DNA of 64,000 bases from Escherichia coli (GCF_044324875.1 NZ_CP172185.1); one strand, 5' to 3'. Counted from the stretch's first letter, positions 2,608 through 53,543 are shown. A program made the numbers and translations. The notes: generated from the letters alone by a model not told the origin.

Positions 2608-2825
2608 AAGTGAAATCCTTAAGTGCAAAATGGCATCTGAATCGATCGCAGTTTGGCATTCGAATCGATCATGATTTGGCATCCATCTCCGATCACAGTT
2701 TGGCATCACAATCGATCACGATTTGGCATGCTTCCGATCATTGATTGGCATCCTGCCAGTCACTCCGGGAATTAACTCTTTTCACCACAGTCTCCATTGC
2801 CGTGTTTAAACCAGTGGAGACGTCA

Positions 2826-4391: not shown

Positions 4392-4407
4392 CAGAAGGAA
4401 CAACAGT

Positions 4408-5163
4408 ATGAGTGATAACCTGTTAAACAAACTGACCCAACTGAAACTCCCGGCGATGGCCGGGAGCCTGATACGGCAGCGGGAAACGCCTCAGACCTAC
4501 GACGAACTGTCGTTCGAGGAAAGGCTGACGCTGCTGGTTGATGACGAGCTTCTGAGCAGGGAAAACAGCCGTGTGGCACGGTTGAGAAAAAATGCCGGCC
4601 TGAAATACCAGGCAACACCGGAAGGGCTGCGCTATCCGGCCTCAAGAGGTCTGCGGGCTGAACAGATGAGAGAACTGCTGAACGGCCACTACATAACCCA
4701 CAGGAAAAACCTGCTGATAACCGGTCCGACAGGATGTGGCAAGAGCTGGATAGCCAATGCGCTGGGCGAACAGGCATGTCGACAGAAACACAGCGTCCGG
4801 TACTGTAGAACCGGGCGATTACTGGAACAACTGGCTCAGGGACGTGTTGATGGCAGCTGGCTGAAATATCTGAAACAGTTGCAAAAAATACAGGTTCTAA
4901 TCCTGGACGATCTGGGGCTGGAACAGTTAAGTAACGCCCAGTGTAATGACCTTCTGGAGCTCATAGAGGATCGTTACGGACAAAGCAGCACGATAGTGGT
5001 AAGCCAGTTCCCGGTAGATAAATGGCATGGTCTGATGGAGAACCCAACAACAGCAGATGCCATCCTGGACAGACTGGTACATAACTCACACCGAGTGGTC
5101 CTTCAGGGAGAGTCACTGAGGAAAAATCCCCCGGTAGTGGAAAGCAGCGAAAAAACGCGTTAA
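4408..5163 (+). CDS. istB: IS21-family helper ATPase IstB
   Basis: MSDNLLNKLTQLKLPAMAG... with Walker A GPTGCGKS and Walker B ILDDLG; 16 bp after istA stop. Confidence 0.9.
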   Translation: MSDNLLNKLTQLKLPAMAGSLIRQRETPQTYDELSFEERLTLLVDDELLSRENSRVARLRKNAGLKYQATPEGLRYPASRGLRAEQMRELLNGHYITHRKNLLITGPTGCGKSWIANALGEQACRQKHSVRYCRTGRLLEQLAQGRVDGSWLKYLKQLQKIQVLILDDLGLEQLSNAQCNDLLELIEDRYGQSSTIVVSQFPVDKWHGLMENPTTADAILDRLVHNSHRVVLQGESLRKNPPVVESSEKTR

Positions 5164-5262
5164 AAAGCGGTAGAAAAAGTTAAGTTCCCGGTTGATCGAA
5201 TGGATGCGAATCGCTGATCGGACTTCGATGCCAATCCGTGATCGAATAGAGCGGAATACGCA

Positions 5263-21204: not shown

Positions 21205-22078
21205 ACAGTTCTCCCAGTAAATTTTTAGTATAATCTTCAGGATTTTCTTCAAATGCGTTCAAATCAAAATTTACAGGCCTGATAAGTAATTCAAAATTAC
21301 CAGATTCCACATCACTTATACATTGATTATATTGTTCAGTATTGATCGCCCTGAACTTAATGATGTCCCCTGCCCGGAAAAACACCATAGAGTCTTTGAA
21401 ATATGATAATTTCTGTTCTGTGTCATAAATCGGAGCTGGTGTTATACCGAACAATTGATACCCACCTGCCCCCCGGACTGGATATATAGCCCCGAAGCAC
21501 CCGCCATGACCAACAGAATGTTTTGGTGTATCAGTTCTGGGAACAAGATATTTTGGAACCTGGATTTGCTTTTTCCGGTCAACCATCTGATACATAAAAG
21601 GCAGCCCGGCAACGAAGCCAACCATAGAAACAAACCAGGGACTTGAATGATGGGCCTCAATAAACGTCTGAACATCCGGATATCCGTTTATTTCAGCAGC
21701 ATACTCAAGATCGGTTAATGCCGGGTTTTGATGATTATTCCGGAACCGCATCAGGGTTTCATGAGTCCATGGATCATTATACAATACAGGAATTTCAATT
21801 ATACGTGTCTGTAGTGTCATTTCTCCATTCCCGGAGAGCACATTAACATTTCGTATCTGTTGTAACAAATCATCAGGGTGTATAATGTCGGGATTAAATC
21901 TTATCTGACATGATGCATTTGCAAGGCAAATATCGAGCACACCATTAATATTTAATGATTCTATTTTTCTCGTAAGAGACAAGCTGTGAAAAAATGCTTT
22001 AAGAGACATTTCCTCACTGACTTCGATGAAAAGATGCTCATCAGCACCAAATGTATAGCGCAAATTTATATCAGTCAT
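21194..22078 (-). CDS. KipI/PxpB-like protein (allophanate hydrolase subunit 1 family)
   Basis: 294-aa ORF with cyclophilin-like KipI signature; overlaps downstream gene by 11 bp. Confidence 0.8.
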   Translation of the reverse strand: MTDINLRYTFGADEHLFIEVSEEMSLKAFFHSLSLTRKIESLNINGVLDICLANASCQIRFNPDIIHPDDLLQQIRNVNVLSGNGEMTLQTRIIEIPVLYNDPWTHETLMRFRNNHQNPALTDLEYAAEINGYPDVQTFIEAHHSSPWFVSMVGFVAGLPFMYQMVDRKKQIQVPKYLVPRTDTPKHSVGHGGCFGAIYPVRGAGGYQLFGITPAPIYDTEQKLSYFKDSMVFFRAGDIIKFRAINTEQYNQCISDVESGNFELLIRPVNFDLNAFEENPEDYTKNLLGELYGN

Positions 22079-22087
22079 ACAGGTTCC

Positions 22088-23449
22088 TCATTTAAATGCA
22101 CCGGTATTCAGCCAGTCTTCAAGCGTTTTATTATGAAACTGAGCATTTCTGAAAAACTCAGCTGATAATAATGCTTCATGAAGAGGTATAGTTGTATGAA
22201 CGCCTTCTATTTGCATATTACCAAGGGTCTCCCGGGCAAGACTTATCGTTTTTTCTCTGCTGTCAGTATGAATAATAAGTTTTGCCAGTAAAGAATCATA
22301 CCAGAGAGGCATCTTATACCCTTCAAACATGTGAGTATCGACTCTTATTCCCTGCCCTTCAGGTATCTGCAATACCGATATTGTTCCGGGACTGGGCATA
22401 AAACCATTGTAAGGATTTTCTGCATTAATCCTCATTTCAATTGCAGCTCCCTGTAACGTAATCTCATCCTGTCCAAACGACAGAGAGTCGCCCCCGGCAA
22501 TTCTCAGCATCCAGTCGATAATATCAATGCCTGTGACCATTTCTGTAACCGGATGTTCAACCTGAATCCGCGTATTCATTTCAATAAAAAAGAATTCCCC
22601 GCTCCGGTCATCGACCAGGTACTCAATAGTTCCTGCGCTTGAATAATTCAGCATTCTGGCGAGATTCAGTGCACTCTGACATAAGGCCTCACGTAGTGAC
22701 GCTGAAACAGAAGGCGATGGCGCTTCTTCTGTCACTTTTTGTCTTTTTCTCTGCAGAGAACACTCTCGTTCAAACAGGTGAACGATGTTTTTTCCGTCTC
22801 CAAGGATCTGAACTTCAACATGACGGGCTTCCGGTATATAACGTTCCAGATATACACCATCGTGCCCGAAAGCTGCTTTTGCTTCAGCACGCGCTACTGT
22901 ATATTCATGCACCAGCTGTTCCGGAGAATGTACAATCCGTATCCCCTTCCCGCCTCCCCCGGCCGAGGCCTTTATCAATAAAGGATATCCGGTAATATCC
23001 GATGCTACTGATAATGCCTCCTCAGGGCTTATAACCTCGCCATTTGAGCCTGGTACAACCGGGACACCTGCCTTTATCGCGCAATCTCTCGCGATTGCTT
23101 TATCCCCCATTTGCTCAATAATCTGAGGAGATGGCCCAACAAAAATAAGCCCTGCATCGAGCACCGCACGGGCAAAAGACGCATTCTCCGACAGAAAACC
23201 ATATCCGGGATGAATGGCCTGAGCGCCAGACTGAAGGGCTGCATCAATTATCTTCTTTCCGTCCAGATAACTGTCATCGGCACGGGATTTACCTATGACA
23301 ATAACTTCATCGGCGCTCTTTGCCGGAAGAGAATTGATGTCTGATTCGCTACATGCCAGCACCGTTTTTATATTCAGCTTCTTTGCACTTCGTATAATTC
23401 GTAATGCAATCTCACCTCTGTTGGCAATAAGCAGTTTTTGAATACTCAT
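22088..23449 (-). CDS. biotin carboxylase (AccC-like) subunit
   Basis: 453-aa ORF MSIQKLLIANRGEIALRIIRSAKKL... with ATP-grasp motifs and EMNTRIQVEH. Confidence 0.9.
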   Translation of the reverse strand: MSIQKLLIANRGEIALRIIRSAKKLNIKTVLACSESDINSLPAKSADEVIVIGKSRADDSYLDGKKIIDAALQSGAQAIHPGYGFLSENASFARAVLDAGLIFVGPSPQIIEQMGDKAIARDCAIKAGVPVVPGSNGEVISPEEALSVASDITGYPLLIKASAGGGGKGIRIVHSPEQLVHEYTVARAEAKAAFGHDGVYLERYIPEARHVEVQILGDGKNIVHLFERECSLQRKRQKVTEEAPSPSVSASLREALCQSALNLARMLNYSSAGTIEYLVDDRSGEFFFIEMNTRIQVEHPVTEMVTGIDIIDWMLRIAGGDSLSFGQDEITLQGAAIEMRINAENPYNGFMPSPGTISVLQIPEGQGIRVDTHMFEGYKMPLWYDSLLAKLIIHTDSREKTISLARETLGNMQIEGVHTTIPLHEALLSAEFFRNAQFHNKTLEDWLNTGAFK

Positions 23450-23621
23450 GCTCAGTTCCTTATATTATTTCTATGGTAGCCAGTACCTGACCAGGTTCCA
23501 CTTCCTCCCCATTCTCCACCTTAAACTGGATAGACTGGCCCCCTGAATCTCCAGACAACCAGTATCACTTAAATAAGTGATAGTCTTAATACTAGTTTTT
23601 AGACTAGTCATTGGAGAACAG

Positions 23622-23987
23622 ATGATTGATGTCTTAGGGCCGGAGAAACGCAGACGGCGTACCACACAGGAAAAGATCGCAATTGTTCAGCAGAGCTTTG
23701 AACCGGGGATGACGGTCTCCCTCGTTGCCCGGCAACATGGTGTAGCAGCCAGCCAGTTATTTCTCTGGCGTAAGCAATACCAGGAAGGAAGTCTTACTGC
23801 TGTCGCCGCCGGAGAACAGGTTGTTCCTGCCTCTGAACTTGCTGCCGCCATGAAGCAGATTAAAGAACTCCAGCGCCTGCTCGGCAAGAAAACGATGGAA
23901 AATGAACTCCTCAAAGAAGCCGTTGAATATGGACGGGCAAAAAAGTGGATAGCGCACGCGCCCTTATTGCCCGGGGATGGGGAGTAA
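23622..23987 (+). CDS. insC: IS2 InsC (OrfA)
   Basis: [52 protein letters not shown]... Confidence 0.9.
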
Positions 23988-24850
23988 GCTTAGTCAGCCG
24001 TTGTCTCCGGGTGTCGCGTGCGCAGTTGCACGTCATTCTCAGACGAACCGATGACTGGATGGATGGCCGCCGCAGTCGTCACACTGATGATACGGATGTG
24101 CTTCTCCGTATACACCATGTTATCGGAGAGCTGCCAACGTATGGTTATCGTCGGGTATGGGCGCTGCTTCGCAGACAGGCAGAACTTGATGGTATGCCTG
24201 CGATCAATGCCAAACGTGTTTACCGGATCATGCGCCAGAATGCGCTGTTGCTTGAGCGAAAACCTGCTGTACCGCCATCGAAACGGGCACATACAGGCAG
24301 AGTGGCTGTGAAAGAAAGTAATCAGCGATGGTGCTCTGACGGGTTCGAGTTCCGCTGTGATAACGGAGAAAAACTGCGAGTCACGTTCGCGCTGGACTGC
24401 TGTGACCGTGAGGCACTGCACTGGGCGGTCACTACGGGCGGCTTCAACAGTGAAACAGTACAGGACGTCATGCTGGGAGCGGTGGAACGCCGCTTCGGCA
24501 ACGAGCTTCCGGCGTCTCCAGTAGAGTGGCTGACGGATAATGGTTCATGCTACCGGGCTAATGAAACACGGCAGTTTGCCCGGATGTTGGGGCTTGAACC
24601 GAAGAGCACGGCGGTGCGGAGTCCGGAGAGTAACGGCATAGCAGAGAGCTTCGTGAAAACGATAAAGCGTGACTACATCAGTGTCATGCCCAAACCAGAC
24701 GGGTTAACGGCAGCAAAGAACCTTGCAGAGGCGTTCGAGCATTATAACGAATGGCATCCGCATAGTGCACTGGGTTATCGCTCGCCACGGGAATATCTAC
24801 GGCAGCAAGCCAGTAATGGGTTAAGTGATAACAGGTGTCTGGAAATATAG
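23945..24850 (+). CDS. insD: IS2 InsD (OrfB) transposase
   Basis: 301-aa ORF overlapping insC in the -1 frame, DDE core. Confidence 0.9.
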
Positions 24851-25058
24851 GGGCAAATCCACTGGATATTAGTCCCGGTTGTTTCAGCATGAATTTCGTT
24901 AAACTGCTTCATTATTTCAATCAACCCAATGACGGTACTCTCCTGAACAGTGTCACCATTCTCCAGAAACGGGGCACTATCAGGTGCTGGTTTCCGATAA
25001 AATACACCAGGTAAAGGTGAAAGAATTTCTGTAACAGCCATAACATCCTCCATGTATA

Positions 25059-25820
25059 TCAGTTTTGAGAATTTACACTTATGTCTGCCTCACGTAAGGC
25101 TTTATTTATTGCAATCAGAAGAGATAAGGCACCGGGCGTATCACTATGGACACAGACAGAAGAGAAATGAATGTCAATATCCTGATCTTCTACAGTACGA
25201 ACTTTTCCCTCCAGACAGGCACGCAGCACTTTTTTTGCGACATCATCAGGATTAAGAGGTTCAGTTCTCCGTATAAATACAATGGAACCGCTTTGATCAT
25301 AATCCCTGTCGGCATAAAACTCACAAATAACAGGATGTCCGATTTGCGTCGCTTCTTTCCAGATGGCACTACCATACATGCAATATATTCTCAATTCAGG
25401 CGCATAACTATGAAGCGTTGAGACAAAATGCTTTGCAGCATCCCGATCATGAGCAAGATGCATATACAACGCGCCATGAGGCTTAACATGGTTTACAGGC
25501 ACATTGTGTAATGTGGCAAATTCACGCAAGGCCCCCAGCTGATAAATCATGTCATTGGTGATTTCCTCTGCGGTGCAGTGAATATGACGCCGGCCAAAAC
25601 CAGCCAGATCACGATAACCGGGATGAGCACCGACAGACACACCACTGTCACGGGCGCTGATTATTGTACGGTGCATAATCCCCGGATCACCTGCATGAAA
25701 ACCTGTCGCTATATTCGCTGAGGAGATGTATGGCATAATATCAATATCCCGGATATCTCCGAGAGTCCATGCTCCAAAGCTTTCCCCCATATCAGAGCTG
25801 ATATCAATACTGCGAAGCAT
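25059..25820 (-). CDS. LamB/YcsF-family protein (PxpA-like)
   Basis: Translation from MLRSIDISSDMGESFGAW...; first gene of the minus-strand operon. Confidence 0.8.
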   Translation of the reverse strand: MLRSIDISSDMGESFGAWTLGDIRDIDIMPYISSANIATGFHAGDPGIMHRTIISARDSGVSVGAHPGYRDLAGFGRRHIHCTAEEITNDMIYQLGALREFATLHNVPVNHVKPHGALYMHLAHDRDAAKHFVSTLHSYAPELRIYCMYGSAIWKEATQIGHPVICEFYADRDYDQSGSIVFIRRTEPLNPDDVAKKVLRACLEGKVRTVEDQDIDIHFSSVCVHSDTPGALSLLIAINKALREADISVNSQN

Positions 25821-25962
25821 TAAAACCTCCGTCTGACAAATACGGTAACAGTATGTCATGTAGCACATTTGTTTCTTTATTGTAAATTATTATTTTTCTA
25901 TGGTAATATATTAAATTTATTTATAATTACTGTTGCAAAAATATCTTTATCAGGAAAATTTG

Positions 25963-26898
25963 ATGAACATCACACTCAGACAGATAAAATATTTCGTATC
26001 AACAGCGGAGTCCGGATCGTTATCAACTGCAGCCAAATCACTCAATATTTCACAGTCTGCGATAACAACAGCAATTCAGGGGCTTGAAAGGGACATCGGT
26101 TATAAATTACTGATTCGCTCAAAATCTGGCGTTGATTTAACAGATGAGGGAAGACTGTTCTTATACAATGCCTACAATATTATCCGGACATATGATGAGG
26201 CAATAAATACAGTGCATGTTCAGAAGCCTTTGCATGGAACAGTTTCCATTGCGGCGACTTATACAATAATGGGATATTTTTTACCTGTTCATCTGAAACA
26301 ATTTTCAAGAATTTATCCACATATAAAGCTGGAGCTTTTTGAAAATCAAAGAAGCATTATTGAAACCGGACTTCTCAGCGGAAAATATGATATTGGGATT
26401 GTAATCAATGATAATCTGACATGTCCCGATATTGTATCAGAAACACTGTTACGGTCGGAGCGCCGTATATGGTTACCATCCGGCCACCCTCTGCTGGAAA
26501 AAGAAATTCTCTCCCTGAATGATATTGTCTCAGAGCCTTTTATTATCCTTGATGTGGATGAAGCATGGGAAACAGCAAAACGTTACTGGAATACGGCCAG
26601 TACCATGCCAGATGTAATTTTACATACGCATTCTATTGAAGCTGTACGAAGTATGGTTGCGAATGATATGGGTATAACCATTCTTTCTGACATGGTTTAT
26701 CGCCCATGGTCGCTTGAAGGGAAACGTATAGAAACACGCGCATTATCTAAATCAGAAGTTTTCCCAATGAGTATTGGCCTGGCATGGCGTAATAATGTTG
26801 AGTTTACGCCTGCAATGCAGGCTTTCATCAATTATTTCAGAAAGATTTTTATGTGTTCTCCCGGTTATCAAAACCGGAATGTTGACCACTTTATCTGA
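25963..26898 (+). CDS. LysR-family transcriptional regulator
   Basis: MNITLRQIKYFVSTAESGSLSTAAKSLNISQSAITTAIQGLE... HTH; divergent from the pxp-like operon. Confidence 0.8.
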   Translation: MNITLRQIKYFVSTAESGSLSTAAKSLNISQSAITTAIQGLERDIGYKLLIRSKSGVDLTDEGRLFLYNAYNIIRTYDEAINTVHVQKPLHGTVSIAATYTIMGYFLPVHLKQFSRIYPHIKLELFENQRSIIETGLLSGKYDIGIVINDNLTCPDIVSETLLRSERRIWLPSGHPLLEKEILSLNDIVSEPFIILDVDEAWETAKRYWNTASTMPDVILHTHSIEAVRSMVANDMGITILSDMVYRPWSLEGKRIETRALSKSEVFPMSIGLAWRNNVEFTPAMQAFINYFRKIFMCSPGYQNRNVDHFI

Positions 26899-27039
26899 TG
26901 TGTTAAAGACATCACTTTATTATTACCACTATAGCTGAACTCATTGAAGATGATTAACTACTGTCTGCTCAGAGAAACGATGTAAAGTGAAATGTGAATA
27001 CTCCTGACCAGAGTGTTGTTCCCTCTGTTACCAGCCACC

Positions 27040-28497
27040 TCAGACCTTTACCAGCACCTGAGGGCAGTGATGGCGCAAACAGGTCAGAAGCGTGGCGAAA
27101 GCCTCTTCCATCTGCGCTTCCGGCAGACTCGCAAATCCCATCAACAGTCCTCTTTTACGCTGTGCTGTCAGGTAGTAAAGCGACAGCGGACGCACCAGTA
27201 TATTTTGTGCATTGGCGCTGGCCGCAACCGCAACATCATCAACATCGTCCGGTAAATTTAATATCAGATGCAGCCCGGCATTATCGCTGAAATCTGACAG
27301 TGCCTGTGTTCCACAGTGACGTTCAATCAGTTCACCAAGAAAGGCGCGACGGCGACTGTACAGTAACCGCATACGGCGAATATGAGCAGAATAATGCCCT
27401 CCGTTGATAAACTCAGCCAGTGCCATCTGGATCAGTGTATGCCCGCCACGATAAAGCTCAGCATGGGCACGTTTTAAAGCCTCTTTCAGCGGGCGCGGTA
27501 ATACCAGATAACCCAGCCTCAGTCCGGGATACACTGTCTTGCTGAAAGTACCAATATACACCACTGGTGCATCGTCAATAAGCCCCTGTAGTGCCGGAAC
27601 TGGTTGACCGGAAAAGCGAAATTCACTGTCATAATCATCTTCCACAATCCAGCTTCCATGCTGTCTGGCAAGGGCCAGCAAGCGTTGCCGTCGCTCAAGA
27701 CTCATCACCACGCCCAGAGGGTATTGATGGGATGGCGTGACGAAAATCAGCCTGGGAGGTGGCATCAGGCGTTCGGGAGGTACCAGACCACTGGCATCAA
27801 CGGCAACAGGGGTGATCTGCACAGCATTCATTGCCAGTACATGGCGTATTCCCCAGTAAGACGGCTCTTCCACCCATGCCATATCACCGGCATCTGCCAG
27901 CATGCGTGCAACAAGATCGATCGCCTGATGGATACCTTCGGTGATAAGTATCTGATCAGCCTGACAGCGTACGCCACGCGCAATCCGTAAATAATCAACC
28001 AGTGCATGCTGTAATTCCGGTGTCCCTCCGGTACAGCTATAGCTCAGCCGCTCCGGCTCAGGACGGCGACTGATACGCGCCTGAATCCTGCTGAACAGGG
28101 GGTGGGGAAAGGCACTGACATCCGGGACGCCGGGAATAAATGCCCCCCACTGGCACGGACTGGCGCTGACATGCCGGAGCAGATAATCCCCGCGGTGAGA
28201 AACAGCAGAACTCAGCCTGGCATCTTCACTTTTTTCCGTGTTACTGAACGCCATTAAGAAGGTATCAGGAGCCGTCTGTGCGACGAATGTTCCGCTTCCA
28301 CGACGTGATACCACATATCCTTCCGCCTGTAATTGTTCATAAGTTGTTAATACTGTGTTTCTTGAGATTCCAAGTTCAACTGCAAGTTCCCTGGAGGCAG
28401 GGAGACGGCTGTGCGGCGGTAAAGAGCCATCGAGAATAGCATAGCGAAGCGCATTATAGAGCCGTTTGTGCAGAAGTTTATCCTGCTCCTGACCCAT
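27040..28497 (-). CDS. MocR/GabR-type regulator (GntR HTH fused to aminotransferase-like domain)
   Basis: N-terminal GntR HTH (LPASRELAVELGISRNTVLTTYEQLQAEGYV) followed by a fold-type-I aminotransferase-like domain; start trimmed to ATG 28497. Confidence 0.8.
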   Translation of the reverse strand: MGQEQDKLLHKRLYNALRYAILDGSLPPHSRLPASRELAVELGISRNTVLTTYEQLQAEGYVVSRRGSGTFVAQTAPDTFLMAFSNTEKSEDARLSSAVSHRGDYLLRHVSASPCQWGAFIPGVPDVSAFPHPLFSRIQARISRRPEPERLSYSCTGGTPELQHALVDYLRIARGVRCQADQILITEGIHQAIDLVARMLADAGDMAWVEEPSYWGIRHVLAMNAVQITPVAVDASGLVPPERLMPPPRLIFVTPSHQYPLGVVMSLERRQRLLALARQHGSWIVEDDYDSEFRFSGQPVPALQGLIDDAPVVYIGTFSKTVYPGLRLGYLVLPRPLKEALKRAHAELYRGGHTLIQMALAEFINGGHYSAHIRRMRLLYSRRRAFLGELIERHCGTQALSDFSDNAGLHLILNLPDDVDDVAVAASANAQNILVRPLSLYYLTAQRKRGLLMGFASLPEAQMEEAFATLLTCLRHHCPQVLVKV

Positions 28498-28651
28498 TCT
28501 GAACAGCAGCAGATCGCCTATGAATGCCCTCAACTGGATCCCTCAGATAATCAAAATTGGTACTCGATTATAGTGCCATCGCCTGCCTAAATAAACAACA
28601 CAGCGTCTCATTTGTTGCAGTTAAGTGACATATTTAACAGGAGAGTCGGGA

Positions 28652-29917
28652 ATGAAAAATTCTGAACTGAATCATCGTCGCCAGCAGGCGACTCCCCGTG
28701 GTGTGGGGGTAATGTGTGACTACTTTGTCGGGAAAGCGGAGAACGCCACGCTGTGGGATGTGGAAGGCAATGAAGTTATCGACTTTGCCGCCGGTATTGC
28801 CGTACTGAACACCGGCCATCGGCATCCAAAAATTGTGGCGGCGGTAGAGCAGCAGTTGCAGTCGTTTACCCATACCGCTTATCAGATTGTCCCTTATGAG
28901 AGTTACGTTTCGCTTGCAGAACGTATTAATGCTGTCGCCCCTGTCGATGGACCTGCCAAAACGGCATTTTTTACCACCGGTGCCGAAGCAGTTGAAAATG
29001 CGGTGAAAATTGCGCGCGCATACACCGGTCGTCCGGGGATTATTACTTTTGGCGGTGGGTTCCATGGTCGTACATTCATGACCATGGCACTCACGGGCAA
29101 AGTCGCTCCCTACAAAACAGGGTTTGGCCCGTTCCCGGGCTCAGTTTACCACGCCGTCTATCCTAATGATGCCCATGGCATTTCCGTTGATGATGCTCTC
29201 AGGAGTCTTGATCGTATCTTTAAAGCAGATATTCCTGCTGATCAGGTCGCCGCGATTGTACTGGAGCCCGTTCAGGGAGAAGGCGGGTTCAATGTCGCTC
29301 CGGCCGCTTTTATGCAGGCATTGCGTGAGTTGTGCGATACACACGGGATCCTGCTGGTTGCCGACGAAGTACAGACCGGTTTTGCCCGTACTGGCAGGCT
29401 ATTTGCGATGCAGCACTACGCTGTGAAAGCCGATCTGATAACAATGGCGAAAAGTCTGGCTGGCGGCTTCCCGTTATCGGGGGTTGTGGGGCGTGCCGAA
29501 GTCATGGATGCCCCGGCTCCGGGAGGACTGGGAGGTACTTATGCCGGTAATCCGCTGGCAGTAGCTGCTGCGCATGCGGTGCTGGATATCATTGAAGAAG
29601 AACAGCTCTGCCAGCGTGCCGATCAACTTGGCGAACATCTGAAAGAGGTGCTCAGTCAGGCCCGGGCAGGATGTCCGGCAATTGCGGATGTGCGTGGACT
29701 GGGTTCAATGGTGGCAGTGGAGTTTAACAATCCGCAAAGCGGTGAGCCGTCGGCGGAATATGCACGACAGGTACAGCACAAAGCCCGGGAAAACGGCCTG
29801 CTGCTGTTGAACTGTGGTATCTACGGTAACGTTATCCGTTTTCTCTACCCTTTAACAATCCCGGATGCTCAGTTCAGCAAAGCGCTGAATATTCTGACCC
29901 GAATTCTGCGTACCTGA
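28652..29917 (+). CDS. class-III aminotransferase, GabT/PuuE-like (4-aminobutyrate aminotransferase family)
   Basis: Strong resemblance to GabT including DEVQTGFARTG and the TMAK PLP-lysine region; ATG 28652 with AGGAG RBS. Confidence 0.85.
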   Translation: MKNSELNHRRQQATPRGVGVMCDYFVGKAENATLWDVEGNEVIDFAAGIAVLNTGHRHPKIVAAVEQQLQSFTHTAYQIVPYESYVSLAERINAVAPVDGPAKTAFFTTGAEAVENAVKIARAYTGRPGIITFGGGFHGRTFMTMALTGKVAPYKTGFGPFPGSVYHAVYPNDAHGISVDDALRSLDRIFKADIPADQVAAIVLEPVQGEGGFNVAPAAFMQALRELCDTHGILLVADEVQTGFARTGRLFAMQHYAVKADLITMAKSLAGGFPLSGVVGRAEVMDAPAPGGLGGTYAGNPLAVAAAHAVLDIIEEEQLCQRADQLGEHLKEVLSQARAGCPAIADVRGLGSMVAVEFNNPQSGEPSAEYARQVQHKARENGLLLLNCGIYGNVIRFLYPLTIPDAQFSKALNILTRILRT

Positions 29918-30051
29918 TATGCACGGAAAATTGCCACAACGGCAGGGAAGCCTTTCTTTCCCACGTGTCGTTTGTGCCAGGCGTGAGTGATTTATTCCTG
30001 ATATCACCTTTTTCCGGCGGCAATAGTCGCCGGTGTAATACGGAATCTGTT

Positions 30052-31296
30052 ATGTCTGAAAATGCCACCTTTTCCCCTGAACAGTCATGCCGCAAACATA
30101 CCGCTGCGCCGGCGAAATCCCTGAGTTTCGTTGAAGGTGTGTCGATGATTGTCGGCACGAACATTGGCGCAGGTGTACTGTCTGTGGCCTACGCCTCCGG
30201 TAAAGCCGGTTTTCTGCCGCTGTTATTCTGGCTCGTGCTGGTCGGGAGCCTGACCACCATAACCATGCTGTATGTGGCTGAATCGACTTTACGTACCCGT
30301 AAACATTTGCAGTTAAGCGGATTGTCACATCGTTATGTCGGACGCTGTGGCGCGCTGATAATGTTCCTTTCCGTCTGTGTGAACAGCGTTGGCGCTCTGA
30401 TTGCATATATGAGCGGAAGCGGTAAGCTGCTGCACTCACTGCTGGGCATTTCTCCAGCTCTGGGTAGCATGTTATTTTTCATTCCCGCCGCAGGAGTGCT
30501 TTATCTCGGCCTGAAAGCGATAGGTCGCGGGGAAAAATTTATAAGTATCGGTATGGTGGTGATGCTCACTATCCTTATCGTCGCCACAATGCTGAAAGAC
30601 ACAACACAAATGCGTTACCTGCTGGATGGCAACTGGCTGTATATGGTGCCGGTCTTTAACGTTGTGGCATTTTGTTTCTCGGCACAATATATTGTTCCGG
30701 AAATGGCGCGCGGTTTTTCTGATAAACCAGAAAAATTGCCGAAGGCAATTATGGTCGGGATGGGAATTACCTTCATTCTGCTGGCTCTGGTGCCTATGTC
30801 TGTCATAGCACTCAACGGGCTGGACAATATTTCTGATGTGGCGACCATTTCCTGGGGACGTGCGCTGGGTGAGTGGGCCTTTTTCTCTGCGAATCTGTTT
30901 GCTCTTTGCGCGATGCTGACTTCTTACTGGGGACTTGGTGGCAGTTTTCTGACCAATATCGTTGACCAGTTCAGTCCGGGCGATGACAGCCAGCCTCTAA
31001 GACGCTTTCTGTTACTGCTGATCGTTGTCATACCACCGTTTATTCTTGCTTATAGCGGCATGGTATCGTTTGTAAATGCGCTTTATTTTGCGGGGGTCTT
31101 CAGTGGCGTGGTCCTGTCTGTTATGCCCATTCTGATACTGAAAGGGGCGCGCCAGCACGGTGACCTGACACCTGGCTGGACGTGTCCTGCACTCATTATT
31201 CATCCGCTACTCCAGAGCTTTATTGTGTTGTTATATCTCTGTAGCGCTGCGTATGCAATTGCTTCTGCGCTGGGCCATCTCCCGGCAGGCTGGTAA
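30052..31296 (+). CDS. amino acid permease (HAAAP-like)
   Basis: Polytopic membrane ORF; start chosen at MSENATF (30052); substrate unknown. Confidence 0.7.
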   Translation: MSENATFSPEQSCRKHTAAPAKSLSFVEGVSMIVGTNIGAGVLSVAYASGKAGFLPLLFWLVLVGSLTTITMLYVAESTLRTRKHLQLSGLSHRYVGRCGALIMFLSVCVNSVGALIAYMSGSGKLLHSLLGISPALGSMLFFIPAAGVLYLGLKAIGRGEKFISIGMVVMLTILIVATMLKDTTQMRYLLDGNWLYMVPVFNVVAFCFSAQYIVPEMARGFSDKPEKLPKAIMVGMGITFILLALVPMSVIALNGLDNISDVATISWGRALGEWAFFSANLFALCAMLTSYWGLGGSFLTNIVDQFSPGDDSQPLRRFLLLLIVVIPPFILAYSGMVSFVNALYFAGVFSGVVLSVMPILILKGARQHGDLTPGWTCPALIIHPLLQSFIVLLYLCSAAYAIASALGHLPAGW

Positions 31297-31569
31297 ACAT
31301 AAAGGAAAAGTATTATCGACCTCCTGTATATTAAAATTGAGTTAGCATAGTGACGAACAGATTTGGCAGGGCATATGTAGCCTGCTCCCCTCCGGGGTTT
31401 AAAGCTCTTTTTGTAAGCAACGGGCGCATGTGCTGACCCACTCATTTGACATCATGACGGTTTATCTGTACGTCACCATAACGCATTTTATAAGAATGTT
31501 TTTTGTCCCATAACAGGTGTCCACTGGTTAAAAAGGTGGGCACCTGTCGTTACCAGTACTGGCTTAATT

Positions 31570-31682: not shown

Positions 31683-32687
31683 CTCTGAAGCAAACTTAAA
31701 ACATCTCTGCACCATTCCATGCACGCATAAAAGTCATTCCGGCATTTCATTTTACATAACATAAACAGAACAATAATAATTACAACAACATTCACACCAG
31801 CATTACAGAACACACTCTGTCTGTTGTTATCACCAGAAATATCAGGAGTATTTAAATGATTATTTCCTCACCTGCAGATTACAGGGACGCCGCAAAACAC
31901 AGACTGCCACGCTTTCTTTTTGATTACATAGACGGCGGGGCTGTTACTGAAAAAACCATGCATGAAAATATGACCTCTTTATCTTCGGTCAGCCTCCGGC
32001 AGCAGGTGCTTTGTGGCGCCGGAGCCCCCGAACTGAACACCACCATCCTTGATTCAGAATGGGCCATGCCTGTTGCTCTGGGCCCCGTCGGTGCCACTGG
32101 CATGTACGCCCGTCGTGGAGAGGTGCAGGCAGCCAGAGCGGCCTCAGCAATGAACATCCCTTATACTCTCTCAACCGTCTCCGTCTGCCCGATCGAAGAG
32201 GTCGCCGGACACGCTGACGGGCAACTGTGGTCCCAGTTATACGTCCTTCGGGATCGTGGTTATATGCAAAACGCACTTGAACGCGCCTGGACTGCAGGTA
32301 TGAAAACCCTGGTATTTACCGTCGACATGCCTGTGCCGGGCTCCCGGTACAGGGATAACCATTCAGGGATGTCAGGTCCCCACGCCACACTGCGTCAGTA
32401 TCTTCAGGCCGTTCTTCATCCCCGCTGGGCGCTGGATGTGGGAATTGCCGGTCGTCCTCTGTCATTTGGTAACATCGAAACGTACACCGGGCATAAAATG
32501 TCGATGGATGACTATATGGGCTTTATCAGCAAAAACTTTGATCCCTCTATTGCATGGAACGATCTCGAATGGATCCGTGATGGCTGGAAAGGTAAACTGA
32601 TAATAAAAGGGATCCTTGTTCCGGAAGATGCAAAAAATGCTGTACTGAACCGCCCCGGGTTTCCTGGAGAGTGTTTTATCTGTGAAC

Positions 32688-33578
32688 TCAGGCTGCCAGA
32701 TCATCGTTTCCGATGGAAGCATAATAAGATTTTTCTGCTTCTGCCGGTGGGATATGGCCCAGCCTTTCCAGCAATCGTCGATTGTTATACCAGTCCACCC
32801 ACGTGAGTGTGGCCAGCTCCACTTCTGTCCGGTTTTTCCAGCTCTTACGGTGTATTACCTCCGCTTTGTAAAGGCCATTGATGCTCTCCGCCATCGCGTT
32901 GTCATACGAGTCACCAGTACTTCCTGTTGATGCCAGTAATCCGGCTTCCTTAAGCCGCTGTGTGTAGGCCAGCGATACATACTGAGAACCTTTATCACTG
33001 TGATGGACTGTGCCGGACGGTCGACGGGCCCATAACGCCTGCTCCAGAGCATCCAGCACGAATGTCGTTTCCATAGACGATGAGACCCGCCACCCCACGA
33101 TGTATCCGGCAAACACATCAATGATGAACGCCACATAGACGACCCCCTCCCATGTGCTGACGTAAGTAAAATCAGCCACCCACAACTGGTCAGGACGTTC
33201 TGCCACAAACTGACGGTTTACGCGGTCGCCTGCGGCAACGGCTTTCCGGCTGACGGTAGTGCGGACCTTTTTACCCCGGAGAACACCGGCAAGTCCCATA
33301 ACCGCCATGAGGCGCGCCACTGTACATCTGGCTACCCTGATTCCTTCCCGTAACAACTGACGCCAGACTTTACGCACACCGTATACCTGATGATTCCCAT
33401 CGTATACGCGCAGTATCTCTTTCTTCAGCCAGTCATCGCGCTGCGCACGGGCACTGCGTTTATAAGGATGATGTCGCTGTTGCTGACAGTGGTAATACGT
33501 TGACGGGGCAATATGTAGTTCACTGCATACCGGTCCGACCCCGTACAGCTTACGCAGCTTATCCAGCAGTGGCATCAC
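32688..33578 (-). CDS. IS629 OrfB transposase
   Basis: 296-aa DDE ORF. Confidence 0.9.
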
Positions 33579-33901
33579 TTTTTCCAGAGGCGGTCGAACT
33601 CCGCCTTCGCAAAATAAGCGGAAGCCTGGCGAAGGATATCGTTACTGCGGCGCAGTTCACGATTTTCACGTTCCAGCTCTTTCAGACGCTGACGTTCAGC
33701 GGTGGTGAGCCCGCCATCACCGCCTCCGGTATCCCGCTCATGCTGGCGTACCCAGACACGCAGAGTCTCCGGTGTACAGCCAATCTTTGGGGCAATGGAA
33801 CAAATTGCCGCCCACTGTGAGTCATATTCGCCCTGACTTTCCAGAACCATACGAATCGCCCTCTGACGGACTTCGGGGGAAAAACGAGTATTTTTAGTCA
33901 T
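33575..33901 (-). CDS. IS629 OrfA
   Basis: [33 protein letters not shown]... Confidence 0.9.
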
Positions 33902-34412
33902 TCTGTTTACCTCTTTCTCAGGGAGTTTAGTCTCCAGGATTCCCGGGGCGGTTCAGTACGGCTTGGCGCGGATGGCATCATTGTCTCCAATCATGGCGGA
34001 CGTCAGCTTGATGGTGCCATCCCCACGGCCAGGGCATTACCGGCGATAGCAGATGCAGTGGGTGATGACATCACGGTACTGGCGGATTCAGGTATTCGTT
34101 CCGGTGTGGATGTGGTCCGGATGCTTGCTCTGGGGGCAAAAGGTGTGCTGCTGGGAAGAGCGTATATTTACGCACTTGCCGCTGCGGGAAAAAAAGGCGT
34201 TGAGCACCTGCTCAGACTTTATGCTGAAGATATGAAAGTCACCATGACGCTGATCGGCGCTTCTTCTCCCGCTGATATCAGCAGCAGAAATCTTGAATAT
34301 CTGGAAAAAGAATTCTCCCGACATTCATCATCCTGACCAAAGTAAACCAGGCACATATCCTCCATGCTCCCGGGACAACAGAGCGCAGTTCGGGCACTAC
34401 AGCCTTACTGGT

Positions 34413-42332: not shown

Positions 42333-43223
42333 TCAGGCTGCCAGATCATCGTTTCCGATGGAAGCATAATAAGCTTTTTCTGCTTCTGCCGGTGGGATAT
42401 GGCCCAGCCTTTCCAGCAATCGTCGATTGTTATACCAGTCCACCCACGTGAGTGTGGCCAGCTCCACTTCTGTCCGGTTTTTCCAGCTCTTACGGTGTAT
42501 TACCTCCGCTTTGTAAAGGCCATTGATGCTCTCCGCCATCGCGTTGTCATACGAGTCACCAGTACTTCCTGTTGATGCCAGTAATCCGGCTTCCTTAAGC
42601 CGCTGTGTGTAGGCCAGCGATACATACTGAGAACCTTTATCACTGTGATGGACTGTGCCGGACGGTCGACGGGCCCATAACGCCTGCTCCAGAGCATCCA
42701 GCACGAATGTCGTTTCCATAGACGATGAGACCCGCCACCCCACGATGTATCCGGCAAACACATCAATGATGAACGCCACATAGACGACCCCCTGCCATGT
42801 GCTGACGTAAGTAAAATCAGCCACCCACAACTGGTCAGGACGTTCTGCCACAAACTGACGGTTTACGCGGTCGCCTGCGGCAACGGCTTTCCGGCTGACG
42901 GTAGTGCGGACCTTTTTACCCCGGAGAACACCGGCAAGTCCCATAACCGCCATGAGGCGCGCCACTGTACATCTGGCTACCCTGATTCCTTCCCGTAACA
43001 ACTGACGCCAGACTTTACGCACACCGTATACCTGATGATTCCCATCGTATACGCGCAGTATCTCTTTCTTCAGCCAGTCATCGCGCTGCGCACGGGCACT
43101 GCGTTTATCCGGATGATGTCGCTGTTGCTGACAGTGGTAATACGTTGACGGGGCAATATGTAGTTCACTGCATACCGGTCCGACCCCGTACAGCTTACGC
43201 AGCTTATCCAGCAGTGGCATCAC
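42333..43223 (-). CDS. IS629 OrfB transposase
   Basis: 296-aa DDE ORF. Confidence 0.9.
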
Positions 43224-43546
43224 TTTTTCCAGAGGCGGTCGAACTCCGCCTTCGCAAAATAAGCGGAAGCCTGGCGAAGGATATCGTTACTGCGGCGCAG
43301 TTCACGATTTTCACGTTCCAGCTCTTTCAGACGCTGACGTTCAGCGGTGGTGAGCCCGCCATCACCGCCTCCGGTATCCCGCTCATGCTGGCGTACCCAG
43401 ACACGCAGAGTCTCCGGTGTACAGCCAATCTTTGGGGCAATGGAACAAATTGCCGCCCACTGTGAGTCATATTCGCCCTGACTTTCCAGAACCATACGAA
43501 TCGCCCTCTGACGGACTTCGGGGGAAAAACGAGTATTTTTAGTCAT
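43220..43546 (-). CDS. IS629 OrfA
   Basis: 108-aa ORF. Confidence 0.9.
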
Positions 43547-49582: not shown

Positions 49583-49646
49583 ATTCGCTTCCTATTGCTC
49601 AACCTGAACCGCCCCGGGTTTCCTGGAGAGTGTTTTATCTGTGAAC

Positions 49647-50537
49647 TCAGGCTGCCAGATCATCGTTTCCGATGGAAGCATAATAAGCTTTTTCTGCTTC
49701 TGCCGGTGGGATATGGCCCAGCCTTTCCAGCAATCGTCGATTGTTATACCAGTCCACCCACGTGAGTGTGGCCAGCTCCACTTCTGTCCGGTTTTTCCAG
49801 CTCTTACGGTGTATTACCTCCGCTTTGTAAAGGCCATTGATGCTCTCCGCCATCGCGTTGTCATACGAGTCACCAGTACTTCCTGTTGATGCCAGTAATC
49901 CGGCTTCCTTAAGCCGCTGTGTGTAGGCCAGCGATACATACTGAGAACCTTTATCACTGTGATGGACTGTGCCGGACGGTCGACGGGCCCATAACGCCTG
50001 CTCCAGAGCATCCAGCACGAATGTCGTTTCCATAGACGATGAGACCCGCCACCCCACGATGTATCCGGCAAACACATCAATGATGAACGCCACATAGACG
50101 ACCCCCTGCCATGTGCTGACGTAAGTAAAATCAGCCACCCACAACTGGTCAGGACGTTCTGCCACAAACTGACGGTTTACGCGGTCGCCTGCGGCAACGG
50201 CTTTCCGGCTGACGGTAGTGCGGACCTTTTTACCCCGGAGAACACCGGCAAGTCCCATAACCGCCATGAGGCGCGCCACTGTACATCTGGCTACCCTGAT
50301 TCCTTCCCGTAACAACTGACGCCAGACTTTACGCACACCGTATACCTGATGATTCCCATCGTATACGCGCAGTATCTCTTTCTTCAGCCAGTCATCGCGC
50401 TGCGCACGGGCACTGCGTTTATCCGGATGATGTCGCTGTTGCTGACAGTGGTAATACGTTGACGGGGCAATATGTAGTTCACTGCATACCGGTCCGACCC
50501 CGTACAGCTTACGCAGCTTATCCAGCAGTGGCATCAC
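49647..50537 (-). CDS. IS629 OrfB transposase
   Basis: 296-aa DDE ORF. Confidence 0.9.
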
Positions 50538-50860
50538 TTTTTCCAGAGGCGGTCGAACTCCGCCTTCGCAAAATAAGCGGAAGCCTGGCGAAGGATATCG
50601 TTACTGCGGCGCAGTTCACGATTTTCACGTTCCAGCTCTTTCAGACGCTGACGTTCAGCGGTGGTGAGCCCGCCATCACCGCCTCCGGTATCCCGCTCAT
50701 GCTGGCGTACCCAGACACGCAGAGTCTCCGGTGTACAGCCAATCTTTGGGGCAATGGAACAAATTGCCGCCCACTGTGAGTCATATTCGCCCTGACTTTC
50801 CAGAACCATACGAATCGCCCTCTGACGGACTTCGGGGGAAAAACGAGTATTTTTAGTCAT
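50534..50860 (-). CDS. IS629 OrfA
   Basis: 108-aa ORF. Confidence 0.9.
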
Positions 50861-50914
50861 TCTGTTTACCTCTTTCTCAGGGAGTTTAGTCTCCAGGATT
50901 CCCGGGGCGGTTCA

Positions 50915-51526: not shown

Positions 51527-51580
51527 TGAACCGCCCCGGGAATCCTGGAGACTAAACTCCCTGAGAAAGAGGTAAACAGA

Positions 51581-51907
51581 ATGACTAAAAATACTCGTTT
51601 TTCCCCCGAAGTCCGTCAGAGGGCGATTCGTATGGTTCTGGAAAGTCAGGGCGAATATGACTCACAGTGGGCGGCAATTTGTTCCATTGCCCCAAAGATT
51701 GGCTGTACACCGGAGACTCTGCGTGTCTGGGTACGCCAGCATGAGCGGGATACCGGAGGCGGTGATGGCGGGCTCACCACCGCTGAACGTCAGCGTCTGA
51801 AAGAGCTGGAACGTGAAAATCGTGAACTGCGCCGCAGTAACGATATCCTTCGCCAGGCTTCCGCTTATTTTGCGAAGGCGGAGTTCGACCGCCTCTGGAA
51901 AAAGTGA
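51581..51907 (+). CDS. IS629 OrfA
   Basis: 108-aa ORF. Confidence 0.9.
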
Positions 51908-52794
51908 TGCCACTGCTGGATAAGCTGCGTAAGCTGTACGGGGTCGGACCGGTATGCAGTGAACTACATATTGCCCCGTCAACGTATTACCACTGTCAGC
52001 AACAGCGACATCATCCGGATAAACGCAGTGCCCGTGCGCAGCGCGATGACTGGCTGAAGAAAGAGATACTGCGCGTATACGATGGGAATCATCAGGTATA
52101 CGGTGTGCGTAAAGTCTGGCGTCAGTTGTTACGGGAAGGAATCAGGGTAGCCAGATGTACAGTGGCGCGCCTCATGGCGGTTATGGGACTTGCCGGTGTT
52201 CTCCGGGGTAAAAAGGTCCGCACTACCGTCAGCCGGAAAGCCGTTGCCGCAGGCGACCGCGTAAACCGTCAGTTTGTGGCAGAACGTCCTGACCAGTTGT
52301 GGGTGGCTGATTTTACTTACGTCAGCACATGGCAGGGGGTCGTCTATGTGGCGTTCATCATTGATGTGTTTGCCGGATACATCGTGGGGTGGCGGGTCTC
52401 ATCGTCTATGGAAACGACATTCGTGCTGGATGCTCTGGAGCAGGCGTTATGGGCCCGTCGACCGTCCGGCACAGTCCATCACAGTGATAAAGGTTCTCAG
52501 TATGTATCGCTGGCCTACACACAGCGGCTTAAGGAAGCCGGATTACTGGCATCAACAGGAAGTACTGGTGACTCGTATGACAACGCGATGGCGGAGAGCA
52601 TCAATGGCCTTTACAAAGCGGAGGTAATACACCGTAAGAGCTGGAAAAACCGGACAGAAGTGGAGCTGGCCACACTCACGTGGGTGGACTGGTATAACAA
52701 TCGACGATTGCTGGAAAGGCTGGGCCATATCCCACCGGCAGAAGCAGAAAAAGCTTATTATGCTTCCATCGGAAACGATGATCTGGCAGCCTGA
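51904..52794 (+). CDS. IS629 OrfB transposase
   Basis: 296-aa DDE ORF. Confidence 0.9.
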
Positions 52795-52836
52795 GTTCAC
52801 AGATAAAACACTCTCCAGGAAACCCGGGGCGGTTCA

Positions 52837-53543
52837 CAATGCTCTGGAATATCTCCAATCCAATCCACACCGGAGTCTTTCATTGGCACATTGGGATCAA
52901 GCCCTTGGGTCACCGCCTGTTGGATGATGATCTGCTTATGTTCTTTTAACAGATTAATTTGCTTTTCTTTGATCGAAATCGCTTCGTCGATTAGAGCGAT
53001 TTTCTTGTCTAGGAAGTTGGCGATACGGGTTTGTTGCTCATGGGGAGGAACAAACGTCTTAAAACTCAGAAATGAATCTTTAGGAATTGTATTTCTCAGG
53101 CCACGATAAAGCGGTTTAAGCATCTTTTTTGCATCAAGGTTCATATAAAAATAGTATAAAAACCTATTATCAAAATTGTCATTTAGTTCAAAAACGGTAT
53201 ATGCACCAGTAATCATCCCATTAAATGGCGACAACCCAACAGTTCTGGGTGTTTCTTCCACGTCGAACAAGCAGAAAATGAAATCTCCACACTGCACTTC
53301 TTGATAAGTATCGAACTCTGCTGGGAACTTACCCTCTGGGTTTTCCATATCACGCTTAATCACACCTCTGAGAGTAAGCGATAGCAAATCATATTCGCTT
53401 GAGCGTTTTCCAACCTGTTTTTTCTTCAAGCGAAAGATGTGCTTATTAGCTAATAAGCTCCAAGACGCAGGAATATCCCCTAGCCATTCAACACCTGAAT
53501 CCTTATAAACCTCATATTTCGGCATTTCAGAAATCTTCATCAT
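52837..53543 (-). pseudogene. hsdS: hsdS 5' part (first target-recognition domain and central conserved region)
   Basis: MMKISEMPKYEVYKDSGVEWLGDIPASW… with repeated KDSGV(E/D)W(L/I)GDIP motif at the start of each TRD; interrupted after …DIPEH by IS629. Confidence 0.85.

Follow-up and report, generated by a model that had tools for sequence, protein, structure and literature searches.

A probable GabR-type GABA-utilisation divergon on a genomic island of Escherichia coli

Genes and features of the locus

The window, which is the whole 64-kb stretch of E. coli DNA analysed here, contains a triad of genes (Table 1): a regulator gene is divergent from an aminotransferase gene, which is followed on the same strand by a permease gene. 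The original prediction had placed this triad at 27040-31296 and had described it as a compact module, with a divergent MocR regulator, that takes up and transaminates an amino compound. Three ORFs are indeed present at these coordinates, RefSeq gives an identical three-gene annotation in the E. coli copies that are 100% identical to the triad, and the reading as an uptake and transamination module is supported. Homology at the DNA level with the loci of Klebsiella, Citrobacter and Raoultella runs from 27052 to 31296 exactly, and the predicted boundaries are therefore those of the module. No Rfam element was found within the triad.

Table 1. Features of the triad (positions counted from the first letter of the window)
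Feature	Position	Strand	Length	Basis or remark
MocR/GntR-aminotransferase fusion regulator	27040-28533	-	497 aa	ORF and Pfam
Class-III aminotransferase	28652-29917	+	421 aa	ORF and Pfam
Permease, Trp_Tyr_perm / HAAAP type	30052-31296	+	414 aa	ORF and Pfam
Predicted operator box 1, TGGATCC, direct repeat	28535-28541	+		Conserved in the intergenic-region alignment
Predicted operator box 2, TGGTACT, direct repeat of box 1	28558-28564	+		23-bp start-to-start spacing
Predicted operator box 3, AGTGCCA, inverted copy of box 2	28572-28578	+		TGGTACT-N7-AGTGCCA with box 2
Putative sigma-70 promoter, regulator gene	28567-28595	-		Read from the sequence
Conserved hairpin CCGGCGGC-AATA-GTCGCCGG	30014-30033	+		134-nt spacer, alignment

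The regulator is composed of an N-terminal GntR winged helix and an aminotransferase-like PLP-binding effector domain (Pfam GntR and Aminotran_1_2). Its PLP lysine is K332, which aligns with K312 of Bacillus subtilis GabR. The start codon is most likely the TTG at 28533 rather than the ATG at 28497: this TTG is preceded by GAGGGA (Shine-Dalgarno, minus strand) and the N-terminus that it opens, MRSLxGDLLLQRL, is conserved at the protein level in 10 orthologues. With this start, the intergenic region is 28534-28651 and not 28498-28651, the region in which MocR direct repeats had been expected.

The repeats are present. The predicted operator, TGGATCC-N16-TGGTACT-N7-AGTGCCA (28535-28578), consists of three boxes; this pattern has a single occurrence in the window, where 0.02 would be expected, and is found upstream of 57 of the 80 regulator orthologues surveyed. 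Box 1 lies 2 nt upstream of the regulator TTG and overlaps the Shine-Dalgarno sequence, and its offset from the start codon is identical in 26 of the 57 operator-bearing loci. The putative promoter of the regulator gene has a -35 TTTATT (28595-28590) and a -10 TATAAT (28572-28567) on the minus strand, separated by a 17-nt spacer. This -10 would fall between boxes 2 and 3, where 29 of the 57 operator-bearing loci have, on the regulator strand, a hexamer that agrees with TATAAT at five or more of its six positions (in 14 of these loci at all six). A search for a consensus sigma-70 promoter of the aminotransferase gene found none, the hand-picked candidates being unconvincing.

In the spacer between the aminotransferase and permease genes, whose folding has a z of -2.2, the hairpin is located a short way 5' of the ribosome-binding site of the permease. 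A compensatory change in it (CCGGCAGC...GCTGCCGG) is seen when the region is aligned with those of K. oxytoca and Raoultella.

The regulator and its relatives

Suvorova and Rodionov (2016) have reconstructed the regulon of the "GabR (Proteobacteria)" group (PMC5320631). The group lists Serratia Spro_4307, Klebsiella KPN_03826, Acinetobacter ACIAD3447 and Cupriavidus necator H16_B0980, and the regulon members are gabT, gabD, gabP, and gbtABCD or dppABCD, while for Klebsiella gabT alone is given (PMC5320631). Group members in these four genera are 57-78% identical to the regulator of the triad (78% for K. pneumoniae and for K. oxytoca, 69-71% for Serratia, 57-59% for Acinetobacter and 59% for C. 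necator). They share with it the divergence from gabT, and the three-box operator, compared by description, agrees with the published motif, in which two repeats are direct and one is inverted (PMC5320631). The orthologous loci carry gabD, gabP or a permease of the triad type, and those surveyed include locus kinds that the reconstruction lists for the group. On the basis of sequence and context, the regulator is a member of this group. The triad differs from the reconstruction in that it adds a Trp_Tyr_perm-type permease and sits on an island, not at the native rpoH-livJ site. The C. necator GabR reporter, which is the only orthologue-level reporter tested, shows a modest induction, a 1.9-fold response to GABA (PMC7057948).

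The context survey covered 80 loci with a regulator orthologue. The regulator is divergent from an aminotransferase-permease pair in Klebsiella, Raoultella, Pluralibacter, Pantoea 1.19, Aeromonas, Citrobacter sedlakii, Cronobacter and Rouxiella, and from an aminotransferase-gabD-permease operon, with a permease of the same type, in Serratia, Mangrovibacter and Mixta. Most of the other orthologous loci contain gabD and/or gabP: gabD-aminotransferase is divergent from regulator-gabP in Acinetobacter, and gabP-aminotransferase from the regulator in Pantoea WMus005 and Tatumella. The order aminotransferase-(gabD)-permease is kept across Enterobacteriaceae, Yersiniaceae, Erwiniaceae and Aeromonas. 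The literature searched holds no experiments on the E. coli locus or on its Klebsiella and Serratia orthologues.

Some RefSeq E. coli genomes label the regulator as PdxR, which controls vitamin B6 (PLP) synthesis. The name pdxR is given in two of the listed E. coli genomes, and the protein passes the NCBIfam model NF052282 (409 bits for a cut-off of 320). However, the rhizopine-MocR model outscores the PdxR model (477 bits), the island has no annotated pdx gene, the neighbours of the regulator being the aminotransferase and the permease, and 60 of the 80 orthologue loci have an aminotransferase, gabD or gabP at 7 kb or less from the regulator, mostly directly upstream and divergent. The solved PdxR of B. 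clausii (7PQ9) is no more similar to the regulator than B. subtilis GabR (4N0B), the scores being about 206-208 bits. A role as PdxR is scarcely credible on this evidence, and the label is likely a mis-annotation.

The GabR-gabTD system of B. subtilis was reportedly described by Belitsky and Sonenshein in 2002. It resembles the triad in the architecture of the regulator, the PLP lysine, the divergence of gabR and gabT and the spaced direct repeats. The operator boxes of the triad are of the form TGGnnC, unlike the B. subtilis GabR box, which is ATACCA. In B. subtilis GabR, R207 and R430 hold the carboxylate of GABA. These arginines align with G228 and L452 in the regulator and are not conserved, so that the recognition of the effector is not transferable from the solved GabR structure; a transfer of the effector-binding residues was considered and discarded. 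The similarity between the two proteins amounts to about 206 bits, and they are placed in different orthologous groups (PMC5320631).

The autorepression and the GABA/PLP-dependent activation of B. subtilis GabR provide the model that we carry over to the triad by analogy. The regulator would bind the three-box operator and, because the latter extends over the ribosome-binding site and the inferred -10 of the regulator gene, would repress its own synthesis. Formation of a GABA-PLP aldimine in the regulator would activate the aminotransferase-permease operon, for which no sigma-70 promoter is recognisable. The succinate semialdehyde produced by the aminotransferase may then be oxidised by the chromosomal GabD or Sad of the host.

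The aminotransferase, the permease and their substrate

The aminotransferase (Pfam Aminotran_3, 445 bits) passes the cut-offs of the NCBIfam equivalogs PRK06777 (842 bits for 725) and PRK09792 (766 for 747), and that of TIGR00700 (667 for 507). It is 57% identical to E. coli GabT and 75% identical to E. coli K-12 PuuE, which has the same length and the same residues at the 17 active-site positions checked (17/17). All the GabT residues for dual-substrate recognition are conserved, as is the catalytic lysine (I50, R141, E211, K268 and R398 correspond to I49, R140, E210, K267 and R396). Judged by equivalog score and active-site residues, the enzyme is a PuuE-type 4-aminobutyrate:2-oxoglutarate aminotransferase. 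For PuuE itself, PMC9397018 gives the name GABA aminotransferase, citing Kurihara 2010.

The original prediction had called for a phylogenetic placement of the enzyme, and would have been refuted if the orthologues were the characterised gabT or puuE in the same context. Half of this holds: the enzyme groups with the characterised PuuE, but it is not its orthologue. In a neighbour-joining tree, it clusters with the enzymes of K. oxytoca, Raoultella and Pluralibacter, beside the Serratia gabT-gabD clade and in a clade distinct from that of PuuE. The contexts differ too: puuE closes the puuPADRCBE cluster, to which the gene of the repressor PuuR also belongs, whereas the aminotransferase of the triad has a MocR regulator beside it and a permease of its own. 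Among the closest known counterparts is the triad of K. pneumoniae, where the same three genes are found in the same order and orientation; the identity is 86% for the aminotransferase (the K. pneumoniae enzyme is 100% identical to the crystal structure PDB 6WJ8), 78% for the regulator and 86% for the permease. The K. pneumoniae triad differs from that of E. coli in being chromosomal, in the rpoH-livJ interval.

As the original prediction had noted, the triad has no succinate-semialdehyde dehydrogenase partner: when the whole window was searched by tblastn (E<=1e-5) with GabD and PuuC of E. coli as queries, none was found. The prediction had deduced from this that GABA may not be the substrate, which would then be another omega-amino compound, such as 5-aminovalerate, beta-alanine, homotaurine or a polyamine-derived amine. 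GabT/PuuE-type enzymes also take 5-aminovalerate and related omega-amino acids, a promiscuity which is in line with this idea, as are the lack of conservation of the carboxylate-binding arginines of B. subtilis GabR and the company of the probable Pseudomonas orthologue of the permease, which is co-regulated by the polyamine repressor PauR with the 5-aminovalerate genes davD-davT. Nevertheless, the deduction is unsupported. The orthologous operons of Serratia, Mangrovibacter and Mixta hold a gabD whose product shares 60-65% identity with its E. coli counterpart GabD. The enzyme agrees with PuuE at each active-site position checked and scores above the GABA-transaminase cut-offs, and the GABA permease GabP replaces the permease in sister loci. 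Moreover, 5-aminovalerate would likewise need a GabD-type oxidation, and the missing dehydrogenase therefore does not discriminate between these substrates. E. coli PuuE, too, has no adjacent succinate-semialdehyde dehydrogenase, and 5395 of 5426 complete E. coli genomes have gabD, which allows the host to provide the activity in trans. That a dehydrogenase gene is missing from the neighbourhood tells little about the substrate when orthologous operons hold one and the host supplies it. A substrate other than GABA is possible but rather unlikely.

The reading that we favour, and consider probable, is that the triad is a GabR-type GABA-utilisation divergon, made of a PLP-dependent MocR regulator, a PuuE-like aminotransferase and a permease for GABA, possibly also for 5-aminovalerate.

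Permeases of the Trp_Tyr_perm (PF03222) / HAAAP type are expected to have about 11 transmembrane segments. A crude hydropathy scan of the permease of the triad gives overlapping hydrophobic stretches over its full length, with no clean segment count. The protein matches PF03222 with 105 bits (gathering score 22) and also Aa_trans (34.6 for 25.6). This match, and the label "aromatic amino acid transport family protein", would make it a tyrosine or tryptophan transporter, functionally uncoupled from the aminotransferase. Such a role is improbable, however, as the scores are far below the cut-offs of the aromatic transporters (TIGR00837, 85 for 350; TyrP, 48 for 482; tryptophan permease, 24 for 515), the gene order with the aminotransferase is conserved across families and in Aeromonas, and the permease alternates with GabP in a single slot. 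Sources give no functional name to any of its homologues beyond "aromatic amino acid transport family", no solved structure of a homologue was found, and a literature search for a link between HAAAP-type permeases and GABA returned nothing.

GabP and the permease of the triad never occur together in the 80 loci. GabP, an APC-family GABA permease, holds the same operon position beside gabT in Pantoea WMus005 and Tatumella and adjoins the regulator in Acinetobacter, although it belongs to an unrelated subfamily (AA_permease versus Trp_Tyr_perm/Aa_trans). This suggests that the permease imports GABA or a close omega-amino acid.

The permease gene also occurs alone, without the aminotransferase, in Pseudomonas and Xenorhabdus. 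The P. aeruginosa relative is 67% identical and is a likely orthologue; provided that it is PA3766, which is a direct target of PauR along with davD-davT (PMC7901475), it belongs to the polyamine regulon. We would give even odds to the broader proposal that this permease is an unrecognised importer of GABA (or of GABA and 5-aminovalerate), which substitutes for GabP in many Enterobacterales and is controlled by PauR in Pseudomonas. The published GabR regulon tables include no Trp_Tyr_perm-type permease (PMC5320631). Otherwise an ordinary locus of its kind, the triad has in its permease a type that had not been linked to GABA before. The proposal offers a testable substrate for a widespread family that is labelled aromatic in Klebsiella, Serratia, Citrobacter and Pseudomonas.

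Distribution and origin in E. coli

Of 5426 complete E. coli genomes, only 11 have the triad; it is carried by a genomic island, which in strain GF4 is located at a tRNA-Ser gene. In Klebsiella, Citrobacter and Cronobacter, the module is found between rpoH and livJ; it is native to this interval and reached a few E. coli as island cargo. The E. coli copy is horizontally acquired and is probably a GabR-controlled GABA-utilisation locus, like those on the chromosomes of Klebsiella, Citrobacter and Serratia. The nucleotide identity to the sampled K. oxytoca, Raoultella, Pluralibacter, C. sedlakii and Cronobacter loci is only 71-78%, and none of these relatives is therefore the direct donor. A plasmid origin was considered and rejected, the one weak match (73%) being to an unrelated gabT.

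GABA is a nitrogen source available to gut and poultry E. coli, for which the triad may represent a rare accessory trait, GABA-inducible uptake and transamination of GABA. If this is true, rare lineages, several of them from poultry, would have gained an efficient use of GABA that is absent in typical E. coli, by acquiring a third GABA transaminase together with the permease and a GABA-inducible regulator.

A functional link between the triad and its neighbours on the island (a LysR regulator, a pxpA-BCCP-biotin carboxylase-pxpB-pxpC-DUF1097 cluster and lldD), for example in a lactam-to-GABA route, was considered and rejected. The LysR gene, the pxp cluster and lldD never accompany the triad in other taxa, the homology to other genera ends exactly at the ends of the triad, and the BCCP gene and lldD are each interrupted by an IS in the window.

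Gene content and identity of the aminotransferase

The triad belongs to a known GabR regulon, described by computation, and was acquired horizontally; the published tables of this regulon do not contain the permease of the window type (PMC5320631). Three long open reading frames are seen where a MocR regulator, a divergent class-III aminotransferase and a permease had been predicted, and these genes are also annotated by RefSeq in E. coli genomes whose sequence across 27000-31400 is 100% identical. The regulator most likely starts at the TTG at 28533. A GAGGGA stands in front of this codon, and the N-terminal peptide, MRSLxGDLLLQRL, is kept at the protein level in organisms ranging from Klebsiella to Acinetobacter and Cupriavidus. 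This start places the shared intergenic region at 28534-28651.

Coordinates of the triad, its predicted control elements and other features of the window
Feature	Coordinates	Strand	Remarks
MocR regulator	27040-28533	-	497 aa; GntR winged-helix domain + Aminotran_1_2 domain
Class-III aminotransferase	28652-29917	+	421 aa
Trp_Tyr_perm-family permease	30052-31296	+	414 aa
Predicted operator box 1	28535-41		TGGATCC; 16 nt before box 2
Predicted operator box 2	28558-64		TGGTACT; 7 nt before box 3
Predicted operator box 3	28572-78		AGTGCCA; inverted copy of box 2
Putative regulator promoter	28567-28572 (-10)	-	-10 TATAAT, between boxes 2 and 3; TTTATT 17 nt upstream; read from sequence
Hairpin	30014-30033		GC-rich, conserved; directly 5' of the permease ribosome-binding site
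pxpA-type cluster and LysR regulator	19724-26898		LysR regulator divergent from pxpA/BCCP/biotin carboxylase/pxpB/pxpC/DUF1097
IS3-family element in the BCCP gene	23533-24860		orfA 23577-23987, orfB 23945-24850
1.31-kb IS3-family element, five copies	32646-33956; 43149-43265; 49605-50914; 51527-52837; 59302-59418		ALIL frameshift pseudoknot
IS21-like element	2626-5262		548-aa transposase (rve + Mu-transposase C-terminal domains) and a second ORF
Group II intron catalytic domain	56690-56776		Rfam match

The aminotransferase scores above the NCBIfam equivalog cut-offs for 4-aminobutyrate--2-oxoglutarate transaminase (842 bits for PRK06777, cut-off 725; 766 bits for PRK09792, cut-off 747; 667 bits for TIGR00700, cut-off 507). 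It is 75% identical to PuuE of E. coli K-12 and 57% identical to GabT, and is the same as PuuE at 17 of the 17 active-site positions compared, which were chosen from GabT and include the equivalents of I50, R141, E211, K268 and R398. The closest PDB match is 6WJ8, a chain with 100% identity to the enzyme encoded in the K. pneumoniae triad; that enzyme is 86% identical to the one of the window. In a neighbour-joining tree, the window enzyme clusters with the enzymes from K. oxytoca, Raoultella and Pluralibacter; this cluster has the Serratia and Mangrovibacter enzymes as its sister group, and lies outside the PuuE clade and a long way from GabT.

Gene order in other genomes and the permease

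The regulator was used to scan species-representative genomes, which gave 80 loci onto which reference proteins were mapped. In Serratia oryzae, S. plymuthica, Mangrovibacter and Mixta, the regulator is divergent from an aminotransferase-gabD-permease operon, whose gabD product shares 60-65% identity with GabD of E. coli and whose permease is 72-80% identical to that of the window. K. oxytoca, Raoultella, Pluralibacter gergoviae and Pantoea sp. 1.19 have the order of the window, without gabD. Among the other arrangements are gabD-aminotransferase divergent from regulator-gabP (Acinetobacter), gabP-aminotransferase opposite the regulator (Pantoea WMus005 and Tatumella) and aminotransferase-gabD in many Betaproteobacteria. 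The window-type permease never occurs together with GabP in the surveyed loci.

The original prediction noted that the triad has no succinate-semialdehyde dehydrogenase partner and proposed that the substrate may not be GABA. The first point is correct, since no homologue of GabD or PuuC is present anywhere within the 64-kb window. The second is not supported, given the equivalog scores, the PuuE-like active site and the gabD genes of orthologous loci. K-12 PuuE is likewise encoded without an adjacent dehydrogenase of this type, and gabD is found in 5395 of 5426 E. coli genomes, so that the host may provide the missing enzyme in trans.

When the look-ups started from the permease, the triad was seen in Aeromonas, Citrobacter sedlakii, Cronobacter, Rouxiella and K. 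pneumoniae; in Pseudomonas and Xenorhabdus the permease stands alone. The triad of Klebsiella, C. sedlakii and Cronobacter has ftsYEX-rpoH on one side and livJ-panZ-livK on the other. The E. coli copy is homologous to these loci at the DNA level (71-78% identity) exactly from 27052 to 31296.

The permease reaches the Pfam Trp_Tyr_perm model with 105 bits and falls far under the aromatic-transporter models (85 vs 350 for TIGR00837, 48 vs 482 for TyrP). No solved relative was found, no source gives a functional name for any homologue, and the literature searched held no paper tying the family to GABA. The permease may be a new GABA importer. Omega-amino acid or polyamine catabolism is suggested by two regulatory associations that are independent of each other. 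In Enterobacterales and Aeromonas, the permease gene is in an operon with gabT, with or without gabD, under GabR. The second association comes from a 67% identical relative in P. aeruginosa (gene order purL-mltF-DUF2239-permease), which we take to be PA3766 by PAO1 numbering. If so, it is reported to be a direct target of PauR, along with davD-davT (PMC7901475).

In K. oxytoca, the hairpin between the aminotransferase and permease genes is altered in a compensatory manner, and Aeromonas has a hairpin at the equivalent place. The hairpin of the window is preceded by a T-run, and its layout is not that of a terminator.

The regulator and its predicted operator

Suvorova and Rodionov have set up a "GabR (Proteobacteria)" group, whose members include Serratia Spro_4307, Klebsiella KPN_03826, Acinetobacter ACIAD3447 and C. 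necator H16_B0980 (PMC5320631). They predicted an operator with two direct repeats plus a single inverted one, and regulons comprising gabT, gabD and alternative transporters. Alignment of the intergenic regions shows an operator of exactly this type; the search for MocR repeats proposed earlier thus yielded three boxes within 28535-28578. Of the 80 orthologues, 57 have a loose form of the pattern upstream, and the fixed-spacing form occurs once in the window, against 0.02 expected.

Box 1 abuts the start codon of the regulator, covering its ribosome-binding site, and its offset from this codon is equal in 26 loci. In 29 of the 57 loci the regulator strand carries, between boxes 2 and 3, a sequence that agrees with TATAAT at 5 or more of the 6 positions. 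The regulator may repress its own synthesis by occluding its promoter and ribosome-binding site. No consensus promoter was found 5' of the aminotransferase gene, which fits a dependence on an activator. The same combination of autorepression and activator behaviour is described for B. subtilis GabR (summary in PMC5320631).

The PLP lysine is kept in the regulator (K332, aligned to GabR K312). In B. subtilis GabR two arginines hold the carboxylate of GABA, whereas the aligned residues here are G228 and L452. The assignment of the effector therefore rests on context and on the weak, 1.9-fold response to GABA of a C. necator GabR reporter (PMC7057948).

The identical regulator goes by two names in RefSeq: two of the listed E. 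coli genomes (H2 and H7) have "MocR-like pyridoxine biosynthesis transcription factor PdxR", and the rest have "PLP-dependent aminotransferase family protein". With the PdxR model it gives 409 bits, for a lenient cut-off of 320, but another MocR model scores higher and no pdx gene is annotated near the regulator; the PdxR identity is very unlikely. The name looks like an over-annotation resulting from the low cut-off.

In Citrobacter and Buttiauxella loci and in a second Raoultella locus (L025, L026, L028, L035, L041 and L044), the closer orthologue of E. coli PuuE (78-81% identical to it) is likewise transcribed divergently from a MocR paralogue, and the three-box operator is present there too. 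K-12 puuE may accordingly have lost a GabR-type regulator on joining the puu cluster.

The island and its mobile elements

Among 5426 complete E. coli genomes, 11 carry the triad, in every case with at least 99% identity. It sits in an island which, in strain GF4, starts at a tRNA-Ser gene next to ghrA. The other cargo includes CP4-type genes, Ag43, IS66, an ABC transporter, a pxp-like cluster, copies of lldD/lldP and a type I restriction system.

The pxpA-type cluster combines 5-oxoprolinase-like subunits with a biotin carboxylase. Other taxa show no link between this cluster and the triad, although in two Pseudorhodoferax loci (L068 and L070) a pxpA homologue lies at 6-7 kb from the regulator. 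The small biotin-carboxyl-carrier gene of the cluster, intact in LH50-c and GF4, is interrupted by an IS3-family element. One copy of the 1.31-kb IS3-family element splits the lldD gene of the island, and a 617-bp segment between two copies, inside the type I restriction S-subunit gene, is inverted relative to GF4. The IS21-like element is inserted, relative to GF4, in the CP4-type part of the island. At the group II intron domain, related genomes annotate an ltrA reverse transcriptase/maturase.
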